Positions 4,901 through 55,197 of a stretch of DNA of 64,000 bases are shown in pieces. The translations under genes were made by a program, and so were the position numbers. This stretch comes from an uncultured delta proteobacterium (GTDB lineage Bacteria; Desulfobacterota; Desulfobacteria; Desulfobacterales; JAHEIW01), in assembly GCA_963706575.1 (NCBI GenBank), contig CAVPNL010000006.1, positions 192,001-256,000 of the forward strand. Direction: 5' to 3'. Numbering within the stretch: the stretch's first letter is position 1; each line of letters starts with the position of its first letter. The notes below the pieces were generated by a model that ran no database searches, was not told where the DNA came from, and saw nothing but the letters and a program-made list of their open reading frames with translations.

Positions 4901-7167
4901 CGGGCATCGATCCTTCTTTCAATGGGGAGTTCAATCTTAAATTTGGCCCCGCCCCACCGGCTGGTGCCCAGTGAGATGGAGCCGTTGTGATCCGCAATGA
5001 TTCGCTGGGCGATGTTCAACCCGATACCGGAACCATCGTCTTTGGTGGTAAAAAAGGGATCAAATATTTTTTCCCTGAGCTCGGCGGGCACGCCGGGCCC
5101 GGCATCGGCAACCTGAATACAGAGGGTGTTATCTTCGGCGGAAGATTTTATTTCCACCCGTTTGTTGCCGTTGGTCGATTTTTCCATGGCCCTGGCGGCG
5201 TTGGTGATCAGGTTCAGGACCACCTGCTCGATCAGGTGGGGGTCGGCATAGCATTGCGGCAAATTGGGGGCCAGGGATTTCTCGAATTTAATTCCGTTTT
5301 TGCGCATGGTGACCGACGAAAGCTCGATGGCTTCTTCCAGGGATTTGTTAATATTGGTGCGCACCATTTTGGGTGCGCCGGGTTTGGAAAAATCCATGAC
5401 CCGCTTGATGACCGATTCAATTTTGTTGGAGGCCACCTGGATCTGGGTCAAAATCTGGCGGATGACTTCCACGTCTTGCGGGCCCAGCCGGTCGGATTCG
5501 CAGAGATCTTCAATCGTATACAGATAGGTATTGATACCGGTCAGCGGGTTGCGAATTTCATGGGCTATTCCGGCGGCCACGCGCCCCAGGGAAAGCATTT
5601 TATTTTTGATCAGCAGCTGGTGCTCAAGCTGCTTGGCTTCGGTAATATCAACGGCATTTAACAGAAAGGCCTGCCGCCCCTGATACAGGAAGCGGGTGAC
5701 GCGGCACTGGAACCACCGCATTTCGCTTTTGCCGCCGCTGCTGTCCGGGGGGTAAAAACGAAAGTCGGTTTCAACGGTACCCTGCTTGCCGTGATTGATG
5801 CATTCAAGAGCCTGTTCGACTTTCTCGATGTCGTCGGGGTGGACGTAGTCCATAAATTTCAGCAGGTTGGACTCCGTGGCAAGGCTATATATTTTTTTCT
5901 GCTCCGGATTTTCATAAACTACCCGGCCTTTCTGGATAATGGAAAGGCCCACCGGCGAATTTTCTATCAGATCGCGAAACTGCTGCTCGCTTTTGCGCAG
6001 GGCGTCTTCGGTCTGCTTCCTATCGCTGATGTCCGTCCAGGAGCCGACGACTTCAACGGATTTCGCACCATCGTCAAAGAGCAGCCGCAGTTCGTCCCGC
6101 ATCCAGCGATAGCTGCCGTTTTTATGCCGGAAACGGTACTCGAGAACATGGCTGCCCTGATCCACCAGTTTGGCAAACTCTGCTTTAACATATCCCACGT
6201 CATCGGGATGGATGTGATCGATCCAAAAATGACGGTCTTCCCTAAAATTACCGGGATCATAACCGAGCTCGTTTTTGACATTATCGCTGATGAAGGTGGT
6301 GGCGCAGTCACCGGCCGGATTACAGGAGTAGATGACCGCCGGGCTCGAGGTCAGCACATGTTGCAGTCGCTGCTTGGTCTGTTTCAATTCTTCTTCAGCC
6401 TGATGGCGGATGGTAATATCGCGGATGGTGCCGATCATTTTTTTGCGCCCGTCTGATATAAAATTTCCGGCACCAATCTCCGCCGGAAAAGTGGATCCAT
6501 CTTTCTTTTTGAGATGTCGTAATGGGATGGTATCATTGGAAAATGATCCTGAACTCAGACGTTTTATATTTTGCTGGCTTTTCTGTATTTCAGCAGAAAG
6601 ATCTAAAACAATGAGGCTTAAAAATTCTTTTTTTGAATAACCAAAAAGATGCAAGGCGGATTGATTGACATCTTCAATTTGCAAGCTTTCGGCGTCACAC
6701 ACTACCACCGCATCCGATTCACTATCAAATAATTGCCGATAGCGCGCTTCGCTCTCCCGCAGCTTTGCTTCTGCCTGTTTATTCTGGTGCTCCAGTCGTA
6801 TGCGATCCAGAGCATTGTCGATGGTATTGAGCAATTCGGTGGATTCAAAGGGTTTTCTGAGGTAATCATAAGCGCCTTTGCGCAGGGCTTTAAGCGCTGA
6901 TTCCACGCTTATCTCTCCGGTCATGACAATGACCAGAGTTGCCGGATATTCCTGACGGATGAGATCCATAACCTGATAGCCGTCGATGTCCGGCAGCCCG
7001 ATATCCTGCAGAACCAGATCCACCCGGTTTGATTCCAGGCATTGAATTGCCTGTTGACCGCCACTGGCGGTTATGAGCCTCAGATCCTTACGGCGCAACA
7101 GCCGCTTCAGATAGCTGGTAAATCCGGGATCGTCCTCTACGACCAGAATCGTATGCTGAGCAGACAT
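4897..7167 (-). CDS. Hybrid sensor histidine kinase (REC-PAS-PAS-PAS-HisKA-HATPase)
   Basis: N-terminal receiver, PAS/PAC motifs (IHPDD, VHPDD), AHEIRNPL, DPFFTTK..GSGIGL. Overlaps the regulator by 4 nt. Confidence 0.95.
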   Translation of the reverse strand: MSAQHTILVVEDDPGFTSYLKRLLRRKDLRLITASGGQQAIQCLESNRVDLVLQDIGLPDIDGYQVMDLIRQEYPATLVIVMTGEISVESALKALRKGAYDYLRKPFESTELLNTIDNALDRIRLEHQNKQAEAKLRESEARYRQLFDSESDAVVVCDAESLQIEDVNQSALHLFGYSKKEFLSLIVLDLSAEIQKSQQNIKRLSSGSFSNDTIPLRHLKKKDGSTFPAEIGAGNFISDGRKKMIGTIRDITIRHQAEEELKQTKQRLQHVLTSSPAVIYSCNPAGDCATTFISDNVKNELGYDPGNFREDRHFWIDHIHPDDVGYVKAEFAKLVDQGSHVLEYRFRHKNGSYRWMRDELRLLFDDGAKSVEVVGSWTDISDRKQTEDALRKSEQQFRDLIENSPVGLSIIQKGRVVYENPEQKKIYSLATESNLLKFMDYVHPDDIEKVEQALECINHGKQGTVETDFRFYPPDSSGGKSEMRWFQCRVTRFLYQGRQAFLLNAVDITEAKQLEHQLLIKNKMLSLGRVAAGIAHEIRNPLTGINTYLYTIEDLCESDRLGPQDVEVIRQILTQIQVASNKIESVIKRVMDFSKPGAPKMVRTNINKSLEEAIELSSVTMRKNGIKFEKSLAPNLPQCYADPHLIEQVVLNLITNAARAMEKSTNGNKRVEIKSSAEDNTLCIQVADAGPGVPAELREKIFDPFFTTKDDGSGIGLNIAQRIIADHNGSISLGTSRWGGAKFKIELPIERRIDAR

Positions 7168-16714: not shown

Positions 16715-16996
16715 ACTAGAAGCTATCCTAAAATTACATTTAACACCCGATGGTACAGTTTTAAACCTGTAAAAAGTGCTTACAACAGCAAGTGCGCTAA
16801 AGTGACAAGTGACCTAAAGTGACTAAAGTTAAGGAATTCTGTCAATTTTATTAAAAGATGGAGCGTAAGCGACGCCATAACTTTAGTCACTTTAGCTCAT
16901 TTTAGGCATTTTAGGCACTTCTAACTTTAGAACACCTTTTGAACTTTTTTCCGCTGTCTCCCGAGATGAACTGCTAATTTTGAGATAGCTTATAGT
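16715..16996. mobile_element. MITE-like element, family B (internal inverted arrays of 9-10-bp repeats)
   Basis: 22-bp TIRs with 19/22 match (ACTAGAAGCTATCCTAAAATTA versus ACTATAAGCTATCTCAAAATTA). Internal CTAAAGTG/CACTTTAG arrays. Homologous pieces at 38291 and 58822. Confidence 0.8.
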
Positions 16997-17006
16997 GAAG
17001 TGGTTT

Positions 17007-19164
17007 TCATGTTTTAACAACCTGACAGATGATTTCTTTATAAGGTGGAAATCCCGAGATGGGATCGAATTGGCGCGGTATCAATTCATTGACGTTGGCA
17101 TCTTTCCATCCATGTTCGACGCCCACAACACCGGCCGGAACTAAAATGGTAGGTTTGGCCCTTACCGTCATCTGGCCATAGGGCGTTTTTAAAATTACAT
17201 CGTCATCCCTTTCAATATTTCGATTGGCGGCATCCCGGGGGTTGATCGTCAATAGCGCATGCCGTTGCAATTCCAGCAACCAGGGAGCATCTTCACGCCA
17301 CTTGCTGTGCGTAATGTATGGAACTCGAGAGCCGGAGATCAATACAAGCGGATAATCTGGAGTGATCGCCATCGGTTCTTTATATTCGCAGAGTGGCGGA
17401 TATCCGTGTTTTTTCAAAGTAAGTGAAACCGCCTCGATTTTTCCACTGGGCGTTGCAAATCCGGGTTTGCCGTCGGGTCTCATTTTTCCGGTTTCGTATT
17501 TTTTAAACCGTTCAGGGCCCCGGGGCGGAACCGTGACTCCCTTTTCCTGATTGTTTCTCAGGTCATCATACGTTAGTCCCCACATCGCCAGAATATCGTT
17601 GCAGGCCGCTTGCACGTCCCCGTTAAAAAAGATTTCCGGATATCCCAGGCGGGTCCCGATCTCGAGGGCGATTTGCCAGTCTTCTTTGCACTCACCCGGG
17701 GGGTTGATTGGTGTGCGCCCGTAAATTTGTCGGCCGAAAACAGCAAAGGGCGCCAGCCGTTCGAAGTTCATGGCTGCCGGCAGCACAAGATCCACATAGT
17801 CATGGGTCCACGGCCGGTAGAAATAATCGACCGCCATGGCAAATTCGAGGCCGGCGATGGCCTGCTGATATTCGTGGGTCTGCGGCCAGATCATCGTGCT
17901 GAAACCCCAGGCCAGAAAAGCCTTTACCTTTCCGCCCTTTACCCATTCGACCAGATGGTTGGTTTGCACCTCCCAGAATTTTTCGGCCCATGCCGGAAAC
18001 ACTTTGCGATCCAACCGATCCGATTTCATTTCATTAAACTTTTGGCGCATGGAAAATTTAGGCGGCCCGTCAAACCAGGGGGCCATGCCTTCCAGAGGCT
18101 CGGTTGGTTTTGTAATTCCGCCGGGAATGTCGATATAGCCGCAAATGGCCGGGATCATCAATATGGCCCGATGGTTATTGGTGGCGTTGAGATCGTGAAT
18201 GGTCCCCTGGGGACCGAGCAGCATACTCCCGGGGCCGTTGGAAGCATAAAGGCGCGCCGCTTCAATAATTTTTTCAGCAGGGACCCAGCTTATTTTTTCA
18301 ACCCTTTCGGGCGTAAAATCTTTGACATAGTCCTGCAATTCATCGATGCCGTGAATCCAATTCTCGCAGAAAGCCTTGTCATGGAGACTTTCATTAAAAA
18401 TGACGTGCATCATTCCGGCAGCAAGGGCGGCAGTTGTGGCCGGTCGCGGTCTCAAATGGATGTCGGCCAGCGTCTCGGCGGTTGGGGTCTTGCGCGGATC
18501 AACCACAATAAACTTTACGCCGTTTTCTTTAGCGTCCGCCAGTTGGCCGTGGCACATGAAGGGTCGGCCGGAATAGGCCGGGTTGGTTCCCCAGATGAGT
18601 ACAACGCCGGTTTTCTGCGTTGGGAGATTGCCCAGGGTGGGAAATCCATAGGTTAAAAGCTCCGCCAGCAAGGCGGCCCGACGACAGGCTGTTGAGCTCT
18701 CAGTGCCGTAATTGACCGAACCATAAGTGGCCGCCAGACGCTGAACAGCGGCACGGGGTTCCTTGGGGTCGCCGACATAAAAGAACGCTGCCTGGGGACC
18801 GTATTCTTTTTTAATTCGATTCAAATGTCCGACGATAATGTCATAGGCCTCGTCCCAGGAAATTCGGACGAAATCGGGCGTGCAGTGCGCCTTTGGGATT
18901 GACTCGCTTCAGCGGATATTTGAGGCGATTTGGATGATACAGCCGCTGCAGGGTTCCATAGGCCTTGGTACAAAGCGGTGCGGCCGGAAATCCGGGCCAG
19001 GACTCAATGCGGGTGACAATATTTCCGGTTTTAAAAAATTTAATTCCGCAAAATGGCGCCTGGTTACACCCGTCACAGAACGTGTAACCCACAGTTTGTT
19101 CCCCCGCCGATGAATCCTTAATGTCTATCTGATAAGATCTATCGCTTACAGCCATATCTGTCAT
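17007..19164 (-). CDS. Molybdopterin-dependent (DMSO reductase family) oxidoreductase catalytic subunit, cytoplasmic; frameshift near 18890
   Basis: CDGC...CG, LCTKA...HPNRLKYPLKR, WGTNP, VVDPRKT, GFATPSGKIE, INPRDA. No Tat signal. Confidence 0.9.
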
Positions 19165-47631: not shown

Positions 47632-48834
47632 TCAGAACACGGGCATGGGCATCTGGCCCCAGTAGTTTCGCGGTGCCGTGGATTCAACATTCTGCACTTT
47701 TCCATTGGCGGTATCCACATCCACCCGTAGCAAGGGTAAGTGTTTGACCGTGAAGGCCAGTGCTTCGTTGCCTGAAGCGTACTCCCCGTTTGGCCAGGTC
47801 AGTTGAGAGAAAATCAGCCGCATGGTGCCATCCCCCGTTGCGCCCATCATCTCATCGTGACCGCGGCGACTTAAAAATGGAAAAATAAACCCGATTACAG
47901 CGCCAAACGACCGCCGGGACCGCATGCGCATAACGGACATATCAGGCTGGGCAAAAAGAGCTTGCATCATGTATTGTTTGGGCATGATATGTACCATGAA
48001 TCCTTTTTGCCCCTGCTGTTGTAATTTTTCGATAGCGGCGGCAACAGCTCTGTCCTGAAAGGCGAAATCGATAATACTTTGCATCGATTCATCGGTCTGG
48101 GGCATTATCGAAACCGCCGTTAGCTTTTTTTCAGGAATATATAGTATGGATGTTTTGGAAATTGTATAACCGTGCAGACCAAACGCCCCCGCAGTAAACA
48201 ACACCAGGCAGACCCAATAAGCCAGCCCCAGCGCCAGCTTTTTCGAACGGATCCAACCGAACAGAGAGCGAAAAATTTTAGCGCCCGGCTCACCCGGGAG
48301 AAACATGGCCGTGTGCTCCATGTACGCGCGGTAGCTTTCCCCATGCTTTGCCAGCATACGCTGTTCCTCATACCGCGCCAGCAGATAGTAGACAAATAAC
48401 ATACTGACATACAGGATCAGGATAAAAAAGCGCGGCCAGAACAGGAGCAGGCCCAATCCGGCGATGGCGAGAAACAGATACTGAGGATGGCGAATCCATC
48501 GATACAGAATTCCGGTCACCACACCTTTGCGGCGAAACTTGGCCGCGTAAACCTGGAAAGCGCCGATCAAAAATGCTAGAATTCCAAGGGAGAACAGGGT
48601 TCGACCAAAACCGTTGACAAAATTGAGAAGACTGCTTTTGGAGACGACGGCATGGGGTAAGAAAAAGCCGGTCAGCCAGGCAGTGGCCGGAAAAGCATAG
48701 AGCGCGTTAAGTAACGGGCCATACCCGGCATAGAAATAGGCCGCAAAGGGGCTGATCATGATGATGATTTCGAGCCCGATTAACAAATAAAAAATCACGA
48801 CAGAAGTGCGAACAACTTTTCCTTGCAAACTCAT
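47632..48834 (-). CDS. Isoprenylcysteine carboxyl methyltransferase-like membrane protein with C-terminal extension
   Basis: GILYRWIRHPQY...EEQRM...Y..Y...FLP motif. Confidence 0.8.
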   Translation of the reverse strand: MSLQGKVVRTSVVIFYLLIGLEIIIMISPFAAYFYAGYGPLLNALYAFPATAWLTGFFLPHAVVSKSSLLNFVNGFGRTLFSLGILAFLIGAFQVYAAKFRRKGVVTGILYRWIRHPQYLFLAIAGLGLLLFWPRFFILILYVSMLFVYYLLARYEEQRMLAKHGESYRAYMEHTAMFLPGEPGAKIFRSLFGWIRSKKLALGLAYWVCLVLFTAGAFGLHGYTISKTSILYIPEKKLTAVSIMPQTDESMQSIIDFAFQDRAVAAAIEKLQQQGQKGFMVHIMPKQYMMQALFAQPDMSVMRMRSRRSFGAVIGFIFPFLSRRGHDEMMGATGDGTMRLIFSQLTWPNGEYASGNEALAFTVKHLPLLRVDVDTANGKVQNVESTAPRNYWGQMPMPVF

Positions 48835-48894
48835 GAGATCATTTGCTTCCTTTTTTTTTAGTTGAGGGGTCGGGGAGTTTTTTATTCAAAGCGT

Positions 48895-48967
48895 GTCATT
48901 CCCGCGCAGGCGGGAATCCAGAAATGTTCTGCTGAAAAAGCTGGATTCCCGCCTGCGCGGGAATGAC
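48895..48967. repeat. Paired dRS3-like palindromic repeat
   Basis: Perfect 27-bp inverted repeat GTCATTCCCGCGCAGGCGGGAATCCAG. Each arm contains ATTCCC-N8-GGGAAT. Confidence 0.85.
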
Positions 48968-49014
48968 GGGAAAAACTCCCCAACTGCTCATTTATTTAGC
49001 TTGTCTAATGTGGT

Positions 49015-49761
49015 TTATTTTCCAGCACGGATTAATACCCCTTCTGTAGCTGGTGAGCTGTTGAAACCCGTTTTTTTGACCAGTTCAGCATTCACAAAGC
49101 CGGCCCTTTGAAGCATTGCCAGGAAATCCTTTCCCGGTATAGCCCCGCCCTCTCATTGAGCCCAACTCTTAATTATTTTATCTTTTTCCTCGGGCAGCTC
49201 GCCAATGAGAATTTCGTCTGCCACCATCAGGCGGCCGCCGGGTTTTAAAACGCGGTAGATCTCACCAAAAGCCCTGGCTTTGTCGGGGACAAGGTTTAGG
49301 GCCCCATTTGATGTGACAACGTCAAAGTCTTCGTCTGCAAACGGCAAATTTTCAGCAGATCCTTCCTTAAAGACAACATTTTTTAAATCAGTCTTTGAAA
49401 GATTCTTTTTCGCCCGTTTAAGCATCGCCGGTGTTAAATCGACCCCTACCACTTTTCCCGTTGGCCCTGTCATCATCGCGGAAAAGAGCGTATCGACGCC
49501 GGCGCCACAGCCCACATCCAGTACCTCATCCCCTTTATCGACGGACCCCAATGTGAATGGATTGCCCACCCCGCAATATGAAGCGGCAACTTCCGCGGGT
49601 AACGCCTGCAGGAGTTCAGGATCATATTTTAGAGTTTTAAGTCCCTCATGGCCCGTGGGATAGCGAAACAGGCCATCCGGATTTTCAGCGGCCTTCGAAT
49701 ATGTTTTCCAAATCGTTTTTTGAATCCATTTTTTATCTTTAACCGTAAATTGAGTTTCCAT
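49015..49761 (-). CDS. ArsM-like SAM methyltransferase, probable selenoprotein (TGA 49153..49155)
   Basis: YCGVGNP, LDVGCGAGVD, EIYRVLKPGG. KSWAQ-[TGA]-EGGAIPG...AGF continues 45 codons to TAA, matching the ArsM WxxC..GA motif. Hairpin CCGGGAAA-GGA-TTTCCTGG 15 nt downstream. Confidence 0.88.
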
Positions 49762-49788
49762 GCATCCACCCTCTTTTGCAAAGACGAT

Positions 49789-50052
49789 TTACTGAAGGCC
49801 TGCCCGGATAGCCGCTTCCAGTTTTCTTTTGGAAATGTCCGTCCCTTCGACGACAATTTCATCCCCTACCATTATCGCAGGCGCAACCGGCAGATCAAGC
49901 TCGAAATATTCGTCGGTCATATATTCATCTTTTGGTTTTTCGATCGTTATCATCTCGATGTCGTATTTGGCACCCAGCCTGGGCATCATTTTTTTAAAGT
50001 GCTTTCAGGGCTTCCCATTGGGCAGGTTCATGAAAAATCTGACCTTCAACAT
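49789..50052 (-). CDS. Small thioredoxin-fold probable selenoprotein (NxPxGxxU; TGA 50005..50007)
   Basis: AAGGAGG RBS then MLKVRFFMNLPNGKP-[TGA]-KHFKKMMP..., in frame with ORF 49789..49989 (LPVAPAIMVGDE). Confidence 0.82.
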
Positions 50053-50088
50053 GAAATCCTCCTTTTTGAAAAAGTGTTAATTTCTTAA

Positions 50089-51828
50089 TTATTCAGTTTT
50101 CCTAATTTCTGCCATTCGCACTAGAAATTGATCGGCCGGCAAAAAATCAACCAGGCGCAGATCGCGTCGTTCCTTTCCCCAACTGTCCAAAAAGATAACC
50201 GTGGGGACACCTTTAACGTTAAATTGACGCAATAAATCTTCATAGACCGGATTGCCTTTTCGGGTGAGGTCAATCTTTATCATGCTAAAATCTGTTTTAG
50301 CCTGTTTGACGATTTCAGGATTATGAAAAGTGACTTCATCCAGTTCGCGACAGGGAGCACACCAGTCGGCATAAAAATCAAGGATCACCGGCTTTTTCAA
50401 TCTCTGGGCATCCACCAGTAACGGTTCCGAGTAGGGCTGCCAGGCGACACCGGGACCGTGCATCACCCATGAACCAATAAGGGCCGTGGCGATGATCAGT
50501 CCGGTTATGGCTGTACCGGTTCTAAGCCACTCGAATCCCCGAAACTCGGCCCGGCTCCGATCTATCCAGCCCAGGTGTAATGCTGCTGCCAAAGCCACGG
50601 CGGACAGTAAGAACACTTTTACGGTACCGGGTAATAACGGCTGAATAAAATAAGCGGCCATGCCCACCAGAATCCAGCCCAAAAGTTTTTTTACCCACAG
50701 CATCCACTCACCGGAGCGGGGAAGTTTGCGCAGCTGTCCTGAAAACAGGGCCAGGAAAAAAAGAGGCAGACCCAGACCGAGGCTCAATGTAAAGAAGATT
50801 AAAAATCCGATCCAGATGCTTCCGATAGTGGCGACCCAGGTCAGCAGACCCAGGATAAACGGGCCGATGCACGCGGAGGCCACCACGCCTAATGTCATTC
50901 CCATAAACAGGCTGCCAAAGTAGCCGGAATAGGATTTTGACGCGGCCTGTGACAAACTGTATGGGAGTCGCATTTCCCAGAGTCCAAAGAGACTGGTGGC
51001 AAAGAAAATGAGTACGGCGGCCACCAGGACGAGCACGACGGGGTGTTGCAGTAAACTTCCAAGCATCCCGCCGCTCAAGGCCGCAATCACCCCGAGCACC
51101 GAGTTGGTGATCGCGAGTCCTCCGATATAACAGGTCCCGTGGATCAACAATCTTCTCTGGTTTTGACCACTTCTACCGCCGAAATAGGAAACCGTAATCG
51201 GGATTAAAGGGTAAATACACGGTGTCAGGTTCAGGGCGATTCCGCCGGCAAAGATTCCCAGAAGTGTCCATATCATCGCCCAGCCCTCTAAGGGCCGTGA
51301 CTGCTGGGGCGCAAGCGATGTTTCAGAAAGCCCGGCCGGAGAGCTGACAACGGGCAAATTCTTTGCGTGCCACTGCGGATAGCCCATGGGATCGCGAAAG
51401 ATATTTTTATAACCCAGTGTTACGGCCACCCGGGCCGCCGAGTCACTGCGGACTCATGCCAGCCCCGCTCAGTAAAACACGATGAAACGATTTTTGTCCG
51501 GCCCCAGAAATTTCTCAAGGGCGCCTTTATTTCGCCAGCGCGACAACCAGGTCGGCTCCATGGGGAAATTAAGGGCGCCATTGATGTGCCCGGTGCGGTA
51601 TTCCCATTCCTGACGGGTGTCCACCAGGAGTACCGTTTCAGGGTCTTTTTGATAGCGGTCCCATAATGCATCGGTGTCAATAATCCGGTAGCCGCCCTGC
51701 TGGGCCTCGGCCAGCACATCGTTCCAGGTTGCCGCCTTGGGGGTGACCACCCGGTTGGTGTGCCAAAGGTAACCGGCAGTAATGGTTATGGCGACTAAAA
51801 CGAAAACAGTTTTTTTAATTGCACTCAT
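50089..51828 (-). CDS. Rhodanese-DsbD(beta-gamma) fusion with two probable Sec (TGA 51469..51471 and 51454..51456)
   Basis: Rhodanese (VDTRQEWEYRTGHINGA), then IVFY-[TGA]-AGLA-[TGA]-VRSDSAA...LGY...GYPQW, in frame with the DsbD ORF (LTPCIYP, SACIGP, DFYADWCAPC). Confidence 0.85.
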
Positions 51829-51919
51829 CTTGCCTATTGTCCGGTTGTCGATTCTGAAAAATAATTTATAATATTTTTTGGTAGTACTCCTGGCCAACCG
51901 CCATAAGGCGACATCGGAG

Positions 51920-52597
51920 CTATGCCTCTTTACCTACAGAAATTGGAAACCCCAGGGCTCGCAAGTCCTGGATTCCCTCTTCGAGCCGCACTGCCTGAAA
52001 ACCCCTTGAACGAAGCATCTCCACGGCCTGGATCGAAAGCACGCAGTATGGACCCCGGCAGTATGCCACGATTTCCTGATCGCGAGGCAAATCCAACAGG
52101 CGCAGTTGCAGCTCTTTAAGCGGGATGGAGATGGCCCCGGGGATGTGTCCGGCGTTGTATTCTTCCACCGGGCGGACATCCAGAACCGTGACTGCTCCTT
52201 TCCCAACCAGCTCCAGAAGCGATTTGCGATCAACCGGTTCCATACCCTCTCTTCCCTCCAGAAAGCGACGCTTGATTTGTTCCACCTCCGCCAGTCTGCT
52301 TTCGGCCAGAACCCGCATGGTGAGGAAAAACTCGCAGACCTTTTGATCGGCAAGACGGTAGTGAACAAATAGCCCCTCTTTTTCGGCCTCCACCAGGCGG
52401 GCTGTCCGCAGAACCTGCAGATGCTGGGAGGCATTTGCGACCGTCAAGCCGGATTCTTTGGCCAAAACCTCGACAGTTCGCGGGCCCTGGCACAGCAGAT
52501 CCAACAGCTCCAGTCGTTTCGGACTGGAAACCGCTTTTCCGATTCGTGCAAACTGCTCATAAATTGCATCTTTAAACACACGATTTGGATTTTTCAT
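51920..52597 (-). CDS. ArsR-family regulator fused to rhodanese
   Basis: ANASQHLQVL HTH plus DVRP.EEYNAGHIPGA, YCRGPYC. Confidence 0.93.
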   Translation of the reverse strand: MKNPNRVFKDAIYEQFARIGKAVSSPKRLELLDLLCQGPRTVEVLAKESGLTVANASQHLQVLRTARLVEAEKEGLFVHYRLADQKVCEFFLTMRVLAESRLAEVEQIKRRFLEGREGMEPVDRKSLLELVGKGAVTVLDVRPVEEYNAGHIPGAISIPLKELQLRLLDLPRDQEIVAYCRGPYCVLSIQAVEMLRSRGFQAVRLEEGIQDLRALGFPISVGKEA

Positions 52598-52612
52598 TTC
52601 ATTCCTCTTTAG

Positions 52613-52660
52613 TATTCAATAGATTAATTGAATATTAAAATAAACCGATTCCTTTGTCAA
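52613..52660 (-). promoter_or_regulatory. Sigma70 promoter and ArsR operator of the arsR-rhodanese operon
   Basis: TTGACA-17 nt-TAATAT on the minus strand, overlapping the palindrome TATTCAAT-N6-ATTGAATA (52613..52634). Confidence 0.75.
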
Positions 52661-52780
52661 GAAAAAGGCGACTTAGGTTAAAAAATGTTGGGTCAAAGAC
52701 CTATCGGAAAGATTTCGACCCATAGAGGAAAATCGTGTAGGCGGAAAAGATCTTACCATCAAATGCAATTTATGGAGAAT

Positions 52781-53346
52781 TTAAAGGCTGGAATTCTGAT
52801 ACATTTTGAGGATTTCTACTTCGCGTGAAAGCCTTATCATGGTGTTCGAAAGTGCGTTAATCAGGCCGTCACCCGTACGAAAATGCTCCTTGTCAGCCCA
52901 GCTATCTTTTAATTGATGCATCCAGCTGTTGGGTGCAGGCGGTACCTTATTCCAGCCGGCATACGGAGCATAAAATAGATAAATATCCCAGGCAACGTGC
53001 CCGTCCCACCCAATACTCTTTGCGATCTCTTTTCCAACAATTTGATCTTGATCGTAAAAATGCCGGAATCTTTTATCACTTAAATACTTAACAGATGGAA
53101 GTGCGGCTTCTATAGAATCATTATCAAGTATTGGAATCCAAACAATTGAAGCAGCGATATCCGCATCCGGAAATTTTGTGATAATTGTCTCGTGTACCGC
53201 CCGGGCACCCTGGTCGCGTCACAATGGACAAGTCGGCGAGAGTAAGGCCAGAAATCGTATTTTCTCCTATTGTTATTAAATTGGTCTTTGAGCGGGTCTA
53301 AAAAGCTGTTCAGCGTTACTATATTGTTTGATTGGTTGATCTCCAT
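52781..53346 (-). CDS. Thioredoxin-fold CxxU probable selenoprotein (TGA 53219..53221; 1-nt frameshift near 53268)
   Basis: RFLALLSPTCPL-[TGA]-RDQGARAV...IVWIPIL...VAWDIYLFY...WMHQL, open for 145 codons after the TGA. Mostly missing from the ORF track. Confidence 0.8.
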
Positions 53347-53375
53347 TAAACTGGGTCCTTACTTTAAATCTTTTT

Positions 53376-53891
53376 TCAACGAATCATATTAAAAGAAATT
53401 TTACCATTCAGTTTATCCACCACCTGGCGGACGTCAGCCAAACATCACCTGCCTTTCGGATTCTTGTTGGCGCAATCGCAAGCACCGGCCTTCTTCTCTG
53501 CTGCGATTTTTTCAATGATCAACGATCGCCCATTTTTGATGAAATCCTGTTCGATATCATTTACGGTATATCCAAAACAGTAACATATTAGATCATCTAA
53601 CTTATAATCTAAATTCTCAGGAGGTTTATCGGAAATATCAGTCGAAGGTGTTTTGTCATTGGTTTTCAGATTCGCAACATACCCGACTTTAAGCAATGTT
53701 TGACAGATTTTCTCTACTGAAACTGTGGATTTGTCATACGATACGATAGCTTTTTTTTCCGGATAACTTGCAAAAGCCTTTTTAACTCCTGGCAGCTCTT
53801 CCAGAGCGCTTACCACTTTGGGCTCTCAGCCCATTCAGGTCATACCCTGTACCTCTAATTCAATCTCATGGGTTCCGTCTGTTGTCTTCAT
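53376..53891 (-). CDS. HMA domain plus Cys-rich (CopZ/BFD-like) domain protein with three probable Sec (TGA 53835, 53826, 53445)
   Basis: LEVQGMT-[TGA]-MG-[TGA]-EPKVVSALEELPGV matches GMTCxxC. ICYCF...CDCANKNPKGR-[TGA]-CLADV matches NPxGxCC. Confidence 0.88.
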
Positions 53892-54078
53892 ATTTGGTGC
53901 TCTCAAGGCTAATTATTTGGCTTTCAAGATTTATACAAAAAGGTTATAATCTACCGTTTAAAAGGTCAATTCCAAAACTTAATCGACTTCCTTATATCAA
54001 ATATCTGCCTTAATATGCTTGCCACCTTCTAAATCGTTATAGACCTGATATGATGGTCCGGCTTGCGCACTATTAGTA

Positions 54079-54555
54079 CTAGTGCGGAGAAATCAGACGG
54101 CCAAAGCAGCTTCTGCGATTGCCTTCAAATAGAAAAATCTGCATACCGAAGACGAAATAAATGACATCCCGCACCAGCGTCAATTCGGGAGAGCTGGCAT
54201 ATCCGCTCTGTCCGGTGGAAAAACACCCGCAATCAAATTCATGGCCACGGATCAGATTGATGGCCAACACAGTGACAAAAGCCAGAAGCAGGGCGTTAAT
54301 GATAATGGCCGCCGAGCGTGGATAAAGACCGATGATTAAGGCGAATCCGGCAACGAGTTCCAGAAAGGGGATGACGATAGCAATCAGGTTGATGAACATT
54401 GCCGGAAAAAGATCATATCCGTATACGATTTTGGCAAAATCCGCGGGTGAAATAATTTTATGCAAACTGGCATAAATAAAGGTGATGCCAAGAATCCAGC
54501 GTCCCGCCAGCTCGATCCAGCTGTTGTTTTTTATGAATTGTGCCCGATTATTCAA
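54079..54555 (-). CDS. MauE/DoxX-family redox membrane protein
   Basis: FIYASLHKI, PFLELVAG, RGHEFDCGCF, LVRD. Confidence 0.88.
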   Translation of the reverse strand: MNNRAQFIKNNSWIELAGRWILGITFIYASLHKIISPADFAKIVYGYDLFPAMFINLIAIVIPFLELVAGFALIIGLYPRSAAIIINALLLAFVTVLAINLIRGHEFDCGCFSTGQSGYASSPELTLVRDVIYFVFGMQIFLFEGNRRSCFGRLISPH

Positions 54556-55042
54556 TTGGATACCCTTCGGCTTCCCAGCCCGGAAATCCGTCAATAAAAA
54601 TCCGCACATTGGTGAATCCAAGGTCTGAAAGAAGCTGGGCCAGCTTGTGGCTATCTTCACAAGTTCTGCCGGAACAATAGGTCACAATGGGCTGTTCGGG
54701 TGGATAGCGGTTGAGGAAGGACTCGATCCGCTTTTCAAATTGGCCTACCGGCAGCGATACGGCTCCCGGGATATGGCCGTTTCCGTAATGGTTTTGCGAA
54801 CGGGCGTCTACAAAAAGAACGTCACCTTTATCAAATAGGGTTTTGGCCCGGGCGACGCTGTCAATTTCTGCTGGCTTTCCCTCTGCAATTCCGCCGGGGC
54901 TGGCGGTAATCACGCCTTCGGCGATATCCCACTGTCCCACCAGGGCAATACCCCTTGGCGAAAGCGTGTTAACCGCCAGGGCCAGGGCCAGCGAAACGCC
55001 CACCAGGATGATGATTTCCTTGATTGTTTTGCGAATAACCAT
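54548..55042 (-). CDS. Membrane-anchored rhodanese-domain protein
   Basis: N-terminal TM, VDAR...GHIPGA, TYCSGRTCEDS, GFPGW. Confidence 0.9.
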   Translation of the reverse strand: MVIRKTIKEIIILVGVSLALALAVNTLSPRGIALVGQWDIAEGVITASPGGIAEGKPAEIDSVARAKTLFDKGDVLFVDARSQNHYGNGHIPGAVSLPVGQFEKRIESFLNRYPPEQPIVTYCSGRTCEDSHKLAQLLSDLGFTNVRIFIDGFPGWEAEGYPIE

Positions 55043-55197
55043 CTATCTGATCCAGGTTCAGTATGATTAAAACGGCCAGAGATAATCCGCTAATCTACAA
55101 TTATAACTCCTGAAATGTTCGGTATCAATATTTTCTATTGCGTTTGCATGCCAAGTTGCCACCGGTCGAAACGGGCCAACGGTGCAACTCGCTAACC

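Follow-up and report, generated by a model that had tools for sequence, protein, structure and literature searches.

At positions 47632..55042 of the window, the 64,000-nucleotide stretch of DNA from an uncultured delta proteobacterium that we analyzed, lies a cluster of nine genes, five of which carry in-frame TGA codons, eight in all. Judging from sequence comparisons, we think it probable that this cluster is a genuine selenoprotein island in a selenocysteine (Sec)-decoding bacterium, and that it is a mosaic assembled around a variant, lacking TsoA, of the Tso operon known from the literature. Every gene of the cluster, like every hairpin, promoter, and other element located below, is on the minus strand, and coordinates are window positions. 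Under genetic code table 11 the five genes are split into fragments, and the original prediction held that all five become full length when TGA is read through. Read-through does rejoin the fragments of four genes, while the fifth, which encodes the motif CPL-U (U being Sec), proved to be frameshifted, with about 30 N-terminal codons in another frame. All eight TGAs lie where they had been placed, and they are kept as TGA in relatives of the same order, far more than coincidence would produce.

We assessed the conservation of these codons using six-frame protein searches over 201 genomes of the same order, taking the best 30 loci per protein (8 for the fifth gene). TGA was present at both TsoB sites, at the aligned TsoC codon, and at the GxUC site of a BFD-like domain in 30 of 30 loci each. 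The methyltransferase gene had TGA in the closest loci (16/16) and a cysteine codon in the next ones (14/14), and the fifth gene had TGA in seven of eight loci, the eighth having U at the first motif position and cysteine at the second. The site in the HMA domain was covered by three loci, two with UxxU and one (L044) with CxxC. On either side of the TGAs the reading frame was conserved, at 47-90% identity among relatives. Most of the families also have homologs with cysteine at the aligned site: the 14 of 14 distant methyltransferases, L044 for the HMA domain, and, at the CxxC site of the fifth gene, the protein P0101 and 65 of the best 150 representatives from a wider profile search. For TsoC and for the TsoB loop, the examined loci included no version with cysteine.

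The original prediction also placed a short hairpin 3' of most of the UGAs. We found hairpins resembling the Sec insertion sequence (SECIS) that start 10-20 nucleotides (nt) after seven of them, and the main TsoB hairpin starts 30 nt after the first UGA of that gene. Consensus structures were derived with RNAalifold on aligned homologs, and pairs were tallied per sequence. The main TsoB hairpin (51422..51438, 15 nt after the second UGA) has six pairs kept in 29-30 of 30 sequences, with two compensatory synonymous pairs (GC in 23 and AU in 5; CG in 27 and UA in 3), and a weaker proximal hairpin (51445-51468) encloses the second UGA. The methyltransferase hairpin (49119..49137, 15 nt after the UGA) has eight pairs, 4 of which occur as several pair types (two to four; for example, GC in 11, AU in 2, and UA in 1). 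The BFD-domain hairpin (53416..53431, 13 nt after the UGA) keeps five pairs in 28-29 of 29 distinct sequences, one of them as CG in 26, UG in 2, and UA in 1, and that of the fifth gene (53194..53208, 10 nt after the CPL-U UGA) keeps five pairs in 7/7 sequences, one being compensatory (UA in 6, CG in 1). The candidate SECIS hairpin of the HMA domain (53790..53815) could serve both UGAs, lying 19 nt from the first and 10 nt from the second; it folds at -8.8 kcal/mol and is also conserved in locus L041. In a proximal hairpin, which encloses the second UGA, L040 and L041 differ by a G-C to C-G swap. TsoC has a short hairpin at 49972..49984, 20 nt after its UGA. Compensatory synonymous changes are stronger evidence for a hairpin than plain conservation. 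As a control, the TGA at 53376-53378, which is the true stop of the HMA-BFD frame, has no hairpin. In a second control, the best downstream hairpin averaged -10.8 kcal/mol, at a fixed place, in the 16 Sec methyltransferases, versus -6.6 kcal/mol, at scattered places, in the 14 cysteine forms.

The genome also encodes the Sec machinery, namely, a tRNA-Sec with anticodon tca, selA (521 bits), selB, and selD, the last of which itself carries an in-frame TGA. Because the TGAs are conserved, the hairpins are conserved, and this machinery is complete, we read the UGAs as Sec: the eight UGAs in five genes appear to be conserved Sec codons with 3' SECIS-like hairpins. Separately, we observed that G000:C3:438965-439886 (loci L004 and L005) contains another selD-like gene, again with TGA in frame. 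It is matched as two pieces, profile positions 3-198 and 204-310, that fall in different open frames, so that the gene may be split or frameshifted.

At its core, the cluster is a variant form of the Tso system, which was already published in 2025. TsoB (50089..51828, 579 residues) and TsoC (49789..50052, 87 residues), whose gene starts 36 nt downstream of tsoB, were identified with NCBIfam (release 20), which we used alongside Pfam as a profile library with curated cut-offs. TsoB scored 1007 bits against NF045694 (cut-off, 805), and TsoC scored 143.6 bits against NF045708 (cut-off, 45). TsoB has an N-terminal anchor, a rhodanese domain with the U-x4-U loop Y-U-AGLA-U (UGAs at 51469-51471 and 51454-51456), a DsbD-type membrane core, and a C-terminal thioredoxin domain (WCAPC), and it matches Pfam DsbD_TM (143 bits, over the cut-off), Rhodanese, and Thioredoxin. 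TsoC carries the motif NLPNGKP-U, with its UGA at 50005-50007. A 2026 review (PMC13188914) that cites Haft & Tolstoy 2025 (mSystems 10:e0141724) describes Tso as a "three selenoprotein operon" with adjacent, unrelated selenoprotein genes, and its Table 1 has entries for TsoA (LULAxC), TsoB (UxxxxU), and TsoC (GxxU). The original prediction knew of no described operon with this combination, a statement that is out of date because the Tso operon, together with ArsM, UxxU, and GxUC selenoproteins, has already been catalogued.

Like the Tso operons of that review, the window has TsoB (UxxxxU) and TsoC (GxxU) adjacent and above their cut-offs, with unrelated selenoprotein genes beside this core. 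It differs in that the locus has no TsoA, in that its regulator is an ArsR-rhodanese fusion, under the TsoR cut-off, in place of the short ArsR/SmtB protein TsoR, and in that its TsoC motif is NLPxGxxU rather than NEPxGxxU. TsoA scored above its cut-off in 24 of the 201 genomes of the order, usually right upstream of tsoB, so the search for TsoA works. There was no match to TsoX (NF045809) or TsoY (NF047643) in the genome, which is weak evidence, since control genomes had no match either. Across the TsoC loci L100-L129, NLPNGKPU occurs in 8 of 30 (window included) and EPNG..U in the other 22, the family being named for NEPxGxxU. In some relatives, either TsoC is present in an additional, partial copy or TsoB-TsoC occurs at two separate places (L167, in G157:C67, at 6583-6702; contigs C38 and C192 of G141).

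TsoB also resembles the DsbD/ScsB-type reductases (PRK00293; DsbD_TM), both in the two conserved cysteines of its core (LTPCIYP and ASACIGP) and in its WCAPC thioredoxin domain, and its residues 199-598 match at 259.5 bits, below the PRK00293 cut-off of 330. Whereas DsbD has an N-terminal alpha domain, which is immunoglobulin-like, TsoB has a two-Sec rhodanese domain in that place. In a DsbD-type topology, the two soluble domains face away from the cytoplasm. The hydrophobic regions of TsoB comprise an N-terminal stretch after two lysines and eight core segments, and by analogy with DsbD the likeliest location of its rhodanese and thioredoxin domains is outside the cytoplasm.

The gene upstream of tsoB (51920..52597) encodes an ArsR/SmtB helix-turn-helix (HTH) domain (Pfam HTH_5, 42 bits) joined to a rhodanese domain (59.9 bits) with the loop YCRGPYC. 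Its best specific NCBIfam matches, TsoR, CmtR, and BigR, are all under their cut-offs (TsoR, NF045707: 47.8 bits versus 115). A sigma-70-like promoter, TTGACA-17-TAATAT (52632-52660; combined element, 52613..52660), overlaps an operator at 52613-52634 whose sequence, TATTCAAT-N6-ATTGAATA, is perfectly palindromic. This sequence has an exact counterpart in five of the eight upstream regions of orthologous arsR-rhodanese genes and a degenerate one in three, and the 64-kb window contains one exact copy. This conserved palindrome overlapping the promoter supports the earlier claim that the gene has its own operator, and from its domains the ArsR-rhodanese protein is likely to be a repressor and sensor. 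All three rhodanese domains of the cluster have a common CxGxxC/UxGxxU loop, of which the regulator has the cysteine version and TsoB the version with two Sec.

We examined whether the neighborhood of these genes is conserved by comparing the window proteins with 20 related regions by tblastn; these comparisons gave 15 TsoB loci, window counted. TsoC was immediately downstream of TsoB in 15/15. A full-length ArsR-rhodanese gene was directly upstream of TsoB in eight loci and TsoA with a short ArsR in three, while in four, one of them cut by a contig end, neither arrangement was seen. The same-genus loci L150 and L151 contain, in order, rhodanese, MauE, ArsR-rhodanese, TsoB, and TsoC, and the Sec methyltransferase comes next in one of them. 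Only in the window are the HMA-BFD and fifth genes found between MauE and the regulator, although a fragmentary same-genus contig (L162) points likewise. The TsoB-TsoC pair is thus conserved in its neighborhood, while the HMA-BFD/CxxU pair, the methyltransferase, and a gene resembling ICMT are separable.

Two further arrangements were observed among the relatives. On contig G041:C444 (L163; 5086-6282 and 9469-9687), TsoA lies directly beside the Sec methyltransferase, away from TsoB, and in L165 (G003:C181; 2320-3307) a BFD-like GxUC gene abuts the Sec methyltransferase.

Genes for the selenoproteins TsoA, BFD-like, and Sec methyltransferase appear, from these gene orders, to recombine in several arrangements, and since the synteny is modular, we conclude that the island is a mosaic of modules and not a fixed nine-gene unit. 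Its core unit comprises arsR-rhodanese, tsoB, tsoC, and the Sec methyltransferase gene behind the sigma-70-like promoter that overlaps the conserved palindrome, and upstream of this core are a genus-conserved rhodanese-MauE pair and an inserted HMA-BFD/CxxU pair.

Alternatively, all nine genes (47632-55042) could form one selenium-based system that binds, reduces, and methylates a single soft metal(loid), as the original prediction proposed. Consistent with this, the genes are co-oriented and tightly spaced, the CxGxxC/UxGxxU loop is common to the three rhodanese domains, and the selenoprotein families recur together: TsoA is next to the Sec methyltransferase and a BFD gene on contig C444 of G041, and the BFD gene has a Sec methyltransferase as its immediate neighbor in L165 and close by in L161. 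However, same-genus loci that retain the other genes lack the HMA-BFD/CxxU pair, a methyltransferase gene close to TsoC occurs in 4 of 15 loci, the ICMT-like gene is found in 0 of 20, and the cluster has at least two promoter-like sites as well as a terminator-like element before the ICMT-like gene. We consider a single nine-gene pathway unlikely and favor a mosaic around the Tso core.

The methyltransferase next to TsoC (49015..49761, 248 residues) is a stand-alone S-adenosylmethionine (SAM) methyltransferase related to ArsM, with its Sec in WAQ-U-EGGA (UGA 49153-49155). It matches Pfam Methyltransf_31 at 121.9 bits. Against the Sec-ArsM fusion models NF041536, NF041537, and NF047649 it scores 321-380 bits, below their cut-offs, covering only positions 1-248; unlike those fusions, it stands alone, without an AhpD, DUF2284, or UXPK-star tail. 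Its best sequence matches in the PDB are solved ArsM structures, and like these (5evj, 8xt7, and 4fr0) it has a class I SAM-binding fold, with Sec at the last conserved ArsM cysteine (UxxG), as aligned to 5evj. ArsM binds As(III) through cysteines at the GCGNP, SNC, and C-x-x-GA positions. At the SNC cysteine (SNCVINL), which 14/14 cysteine forms and solved ArsM carry, we found glycine in 16/16 Sec forms, and the N-terminal motif of the Sec forms is YCGVGNP (14/16) or FAGTGNP (2/16) versus GCGNP, and their N-terminal cysteine is displaced by two residues. The Sec methyltransferases form a distinct subfamily whose thiol/selenol site has been rebuilt around one Sec; they are related to ArsM, but the name ArsM, which the original prediction had used for the gene in the window, is not supported.

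This distinction bears on the possibility that the cluster is a dedicated arsenic-resistance operon, in which ArsR would sense As(III) and ArsM would methylate it. The regulator does have an ArsR/SmtB HTH, among solved structures the methyltransferase is most closely related to arsenite methyltransferases (5evj, E = 1.1e-25), and the review PMC13188914 puts an ArsM (UxxG) selenoprotein under the heading "experimentally verified." The methyltransferase, however, scores 206.6 bits against the arsenite methyltransferase model NF008823 (cut-off, 263), has glycine at one canonical As-binding cysteine, and has its N-terminal cysteine shifted by two residues. Moreover, the TsoR, CmtR, and BigR matches of the regulator are below cut-off, its HTH part, read by eye, has no CxC pair, and arsB, acr3, or arsC genes were not noticed in the cluster, where no search aimed at them was made. 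We therefore judge an arsenic-resistance operon to be improbable.

The HMA-BFD gene (53376..53891) encodes 171 residues with three Sec, in an HMA domain (GMT-U-MG-U; UGAs at 53835-53837 and 53826-53828) and in a C-terminal, cysteine-rich domain resembling BFD and the CopZ N terminus (GR-U-C; UGA at 53445-53447). The HMA part scores 45.8 bits against Pfam HMA (cut-off, 24.8) and 62 bits against NCBIfam UxxU_metal_bind (cut-off, 95), and its two Sec take the positions of the cysteines in the GMTCxxC motif when aligned with solved domains of Cu-ATPases and CopA. The BFD-like part scores 18.9 bits against Fer2_BFD (cut-off, 26), 52.8 against CopZ_Nterm_CC (cut-off, 100), and 22.8 against CopZ_Nterm_CU (cut-off, 190), and it has no sequence match among solved structures. 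Like the HMA metallochaperones (CopZ, MerP, and Cu-ATPase N termini), the protein has the GMTxxxx motif, here with Sec at both metal-binding positions. In Archaeoglobus CopZ the HMA domain is not first, and the domain order in the window, with HMA first, is the reverse. The review PMC13188914 catalogues a UxxU metal-binding protein (in NCBIfam, "metal-binding (seleno)protein," NF041115) and a GxUC protein, "(2Fe-2S)-binding protein, CopZ family, form 1," as one-domain selenoproteins, and the GxUC of the window fits its "form 1." Here the two are fused into one three-Sec protein that scores below the equivalog cut-offs. The same fusion, with all three TGAs, is retained in L041, and L044 has it as CxxC plus U. 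On these matches, the fusion of HMA and BFD-like domains into a three-Sec protein appears to be a new detail.

The fifth gene (52781..53346), which encodes a thioredoxin-fold protein with the motif SPTCPL-U (UGA 53219-53221), is the one that read-through alone does not restore. Its N terminus (MEINQSNNIVTLNSFLDPLKDQFNNN, from ATG 53346), comprising the first ~30 codons, and the remainder, which runs from 53266, are in different frames; the TGA-bearing frame opens just 15 codons before the TGA, behind a TAG. Seven homologs have a single frame of 174-184 residues, the same-genus one reading ...RFNHNKEKIRFLALLSPTCPLU. Comparison with metagenome contigs of related strains placed the frameshift site at 53264..53269: these contigs have 1 nt more behind 53264 (metagenome run X1, 1 contig) or 2 nt fewer at 53268 (1 contig each in runs X1 and X2). 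Since either change restores one frame in the related strains, the break is either strain-specific or an assembly error.

We found no match for the fifth gene in Pfam or NCBIfam at E<=10, and its cysteine form P0101 matched only an unrelated NCBIfam model, at an E value of 0.093. An AlphaFold2 model of the same-genus homolog, based on a 38-sequence alignment, had a mean predicted local distance difference test (pLDDT) score of 92.1 and a predicted template modeling (pTM) score of 0.89, with the motif at the start of helix 1. Foldseek found thioredoxins of the TlpA/ResA/DsbE/CcmG type to be loosely similar to this model (template modeling score about 0.5). The protein is like these thioredoxins in its predicted fold and in having a CxxC-type motif at the start of helix 1, and it differs in having no detectable family membership, no evident signal peptide, and the motif SPT[C/U]xx[U/C]. 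A profile search of 1.84 billion representatives returned 2016 members at E<=0.001; among the best 150 of these, 65 are of the LLSPTCxxC type, 5 are W forms, and 80 have no match to the regular expression. Among 120 listed database relatives, all of those named being called solely "hypothetical protein," there are 51 CxxW, 3 WxxW, and 1 CxxC, and the other 65 are mostly fragments starting after the TGA. The W presumably reflects TGA read as tryptophan by gene callers, and the closest public relatives are mostly Sec forms. We assign the fifth gene to a large thioredoxin-fold family, with CxxC, CxxU, and UxxU members, for which neither Pfam nor NCBIfam has a model.

In NCBIfam release 20 and in a literature search limited to motif words, whose 10 listed hits were all unrelated, we found nothing describing this family as a selenoprotein. 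Three sequence words of the family had no match in the BSepDB supplement, which is uninformative, as "TsoB" was not found there either. A BFD-like GxUC gene adjoins the fifth gene in five of eight loci. Taken together, the fifth gene may represent an uncatalogued selenoprotein family that, with the BFD-like GxUC protein, makes up a conserved module of two selenoproteins; if in this genome the module joined a Tso operon lacking TsoA, it could give a Sec-only relay leading from outward reduction by TsoB to chelation and methylation in the cytoplasm. We regard this joint interpretation as speculative and rather doubtful.

Several observations weigh against reading the cluster as a selenoprotein island built around a TsoA-less Tso operon. 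TsoA itself (NF045695), one of the three genes for which Tso is named, has no match in the genome, whose completeness is 91.8%, nor in any of the four others from the genus (0/5). The same-genus loci L150 and L151 lack the HMA-BFD/CxxU pair, the Sec methyltransferase is within 3 kb downstream of TsoC in only 4/15 loci, the ICMT-like gene has a homolog in 0 of the 20 related loci fetched, and the fifth gene is frameshifted in this assembly. With respect to the hairpins, they sit in coding sequence, where protein constraint explains part of their conservation; those of the HMA domain were compared in two sequences only, and that of TsoC is the weakest, having five pairs, of which the three inner ones are invariant (30/30) and the outer one is kept in 22/30. 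Finally, four metagenome runs, from four studies, contain 39-50% of the sampled words of the region, and among the 40 listed of 571 differences between metagenome contigs and the window, none falls on a TGA; this sample is uninformative as to the TGA sites.

Could the TGAs instead be ordinary stops, pseudogene breaks, or sequencing errors, with the fragments being what is expressed? The frames are indeed broken under table 11, and one of the five genes is truly frameshifted in the assembly. Yet TGA recurs at the same codon in as many as 30 of 30 independent genomes, the frame is conserved before and after it, the hairpins are conserved, and the Sec machinery is complete, and we consider this explanation very improbable. 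Genome-wide reassignment of UGA to tryptophan or glycine (codes 4/25) is hardly credible, for although public gene calls give W at this codon in the CxxU family (51 CxxW and 3 WxxW of 55 motif-bearing proteins among the 120 listed), homologs carry cysteine at the aligned residue rather than tryptophan or glycine, tRNA-Sec, selA, selB, and selD are encoded, and TGA also terminates genes without a hairpin, for example HMA-BFD at 53376-53378. We thus retain the interpretation of the UGAs as Sec codons.

The remaining genes of the cluster, like the ArsR-rhodanese gene, are present as originally predicted, and Pfam upheld the assignments of methyltransferase, HMA, DsbD, rhodanese, ArsR, and MauE domains. 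At the 5' end, a sigma-70-like promoter, TTGATA-17-TATAAT (55100..55128; 11 of 12 consensus positions, a pattern match only), lies upstream of a gene for a membrane-anchored, cysteine-type rhodanese (54548..55042, 164 residues; Pfam Rhodanese, 69.9 bits) with the loop YCSGRTC and one N-terminal hydrophobic segment. Next is a MauE/DoxX membrane protein (54079..54556; Pfam MauE, 91.6 bits; DoxX, 39.1 bits) with four hydrophobic segments; from its own sequence and the point where the alignment of its relatives begins, we place its start at the TTG at 54556, which would overlap the rhodanese stop. At the 3' end, a terminator-like stem with a T-run (48945..48964, a pattern match only) lies inside a longer palindromic repeat and likely marks the 3' end of the arsR-rhd/tsoB/tsoC/methyltransferase unit. 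The repeat (48893-48975), which is situated between the Sec methyltransferase and ICMT-like genes and whose arms contain GGGAATCCAG / CTGGATTCCC, is a source of spurious open reading frames on both strands and looks like an interspersed repeat element. The PEMT/ICMT-like membrane methyltransferase (47632..48834; Pfam PEMT, 33.4 bits) had been counted as a member of the cluster; given its absence from the 20 related loci and its position behind the terminator-like palindrome, it is probably a neighbor and not part of the system.

We also scanned the whole window for further selenoprotein genes and obtained 72 TGA-joined frames. Nine of these, picked by eye, were compared with NCBIfam; the matches, to HDIG, L27, PhoU, and molybdopterin oxidoreductase families, were on one side of the TGA only, so the TGAs in the checked frames look like ordinary stops. 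The molybdopterin oxidoreductase gene (16977-19124, minus strand) is formate-dehydrogenase-alpha-like (236.7 bits, below cut-off). Its match begins at profile position 62, right after the upstream TGA, and its N-terminal part may be missing or in another frame.

How might the products of these genes work together? The ArsR-rhodanese protein would repress from the palindrome until the CxGxxC loop of its rhodanese domain, or a cysteine in its HTH part, is modified by a soft electrophile, candidates being reactive sulfur, selenium, or tellurium and thiophilic metal(loid)s. Since the regulator has the same loop, in its CxGxxC form, it would sense a modification related to that of TsoB. TsoB, acting like DsbD, would pass electrons from cytoplasmic thioredoxin through the two-cysteine membrane core to the outward thioredoxin domain (WCAPC) and on to the outward rhodanese, whose U-x4-U loop would cycle between diselenide and diselenol and reduce or capture an extracytoplasmic substrate that is thiophilic or a chalcogen. 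In TsoC, the HMA-BFD protein, the CxxU protein, and the methyltransferase we see no obvious signal for export, and we therefore predict that these four stay in the cytoplasm. There, TsoC and the CxxU thioredoxin-fold protein may serve as selenol redox partners, the HMA-BFD protein may chelate thiophilic species, and the methyltransferase may methylate a substrate held between Cys63 and Sec203. We hold this chain of regulation, TsoB relay, and cytoplasmic partners, taken as a whole, only tentatively.

The published Tso system accounts for the core of this island, and the absence of TsoA, the ArsR-rhodanese protein in place of TsoR, the three-Sec fusion, the rebuilt methyltransferase site, and the unmodeled fifth family are new details that add modestly to it. 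According to the BSepDB paper, selenoprotein-rich relatives have 39-63 selenoprotein genes each, so a five-gene island is notable but not exceptional. Standard gene callers would split or truncate the five genes, and public databases hold the fifth family as fragments or with tryptophan at the Sec codon. The Tso variant described here offers testable handles, namely, a defined promoter and operator, a sensor fused to the two-cysteine form of the loop that TsoB has with two Sec, and a methyltransferase whose active site appears to be rebuilt around one Sec.

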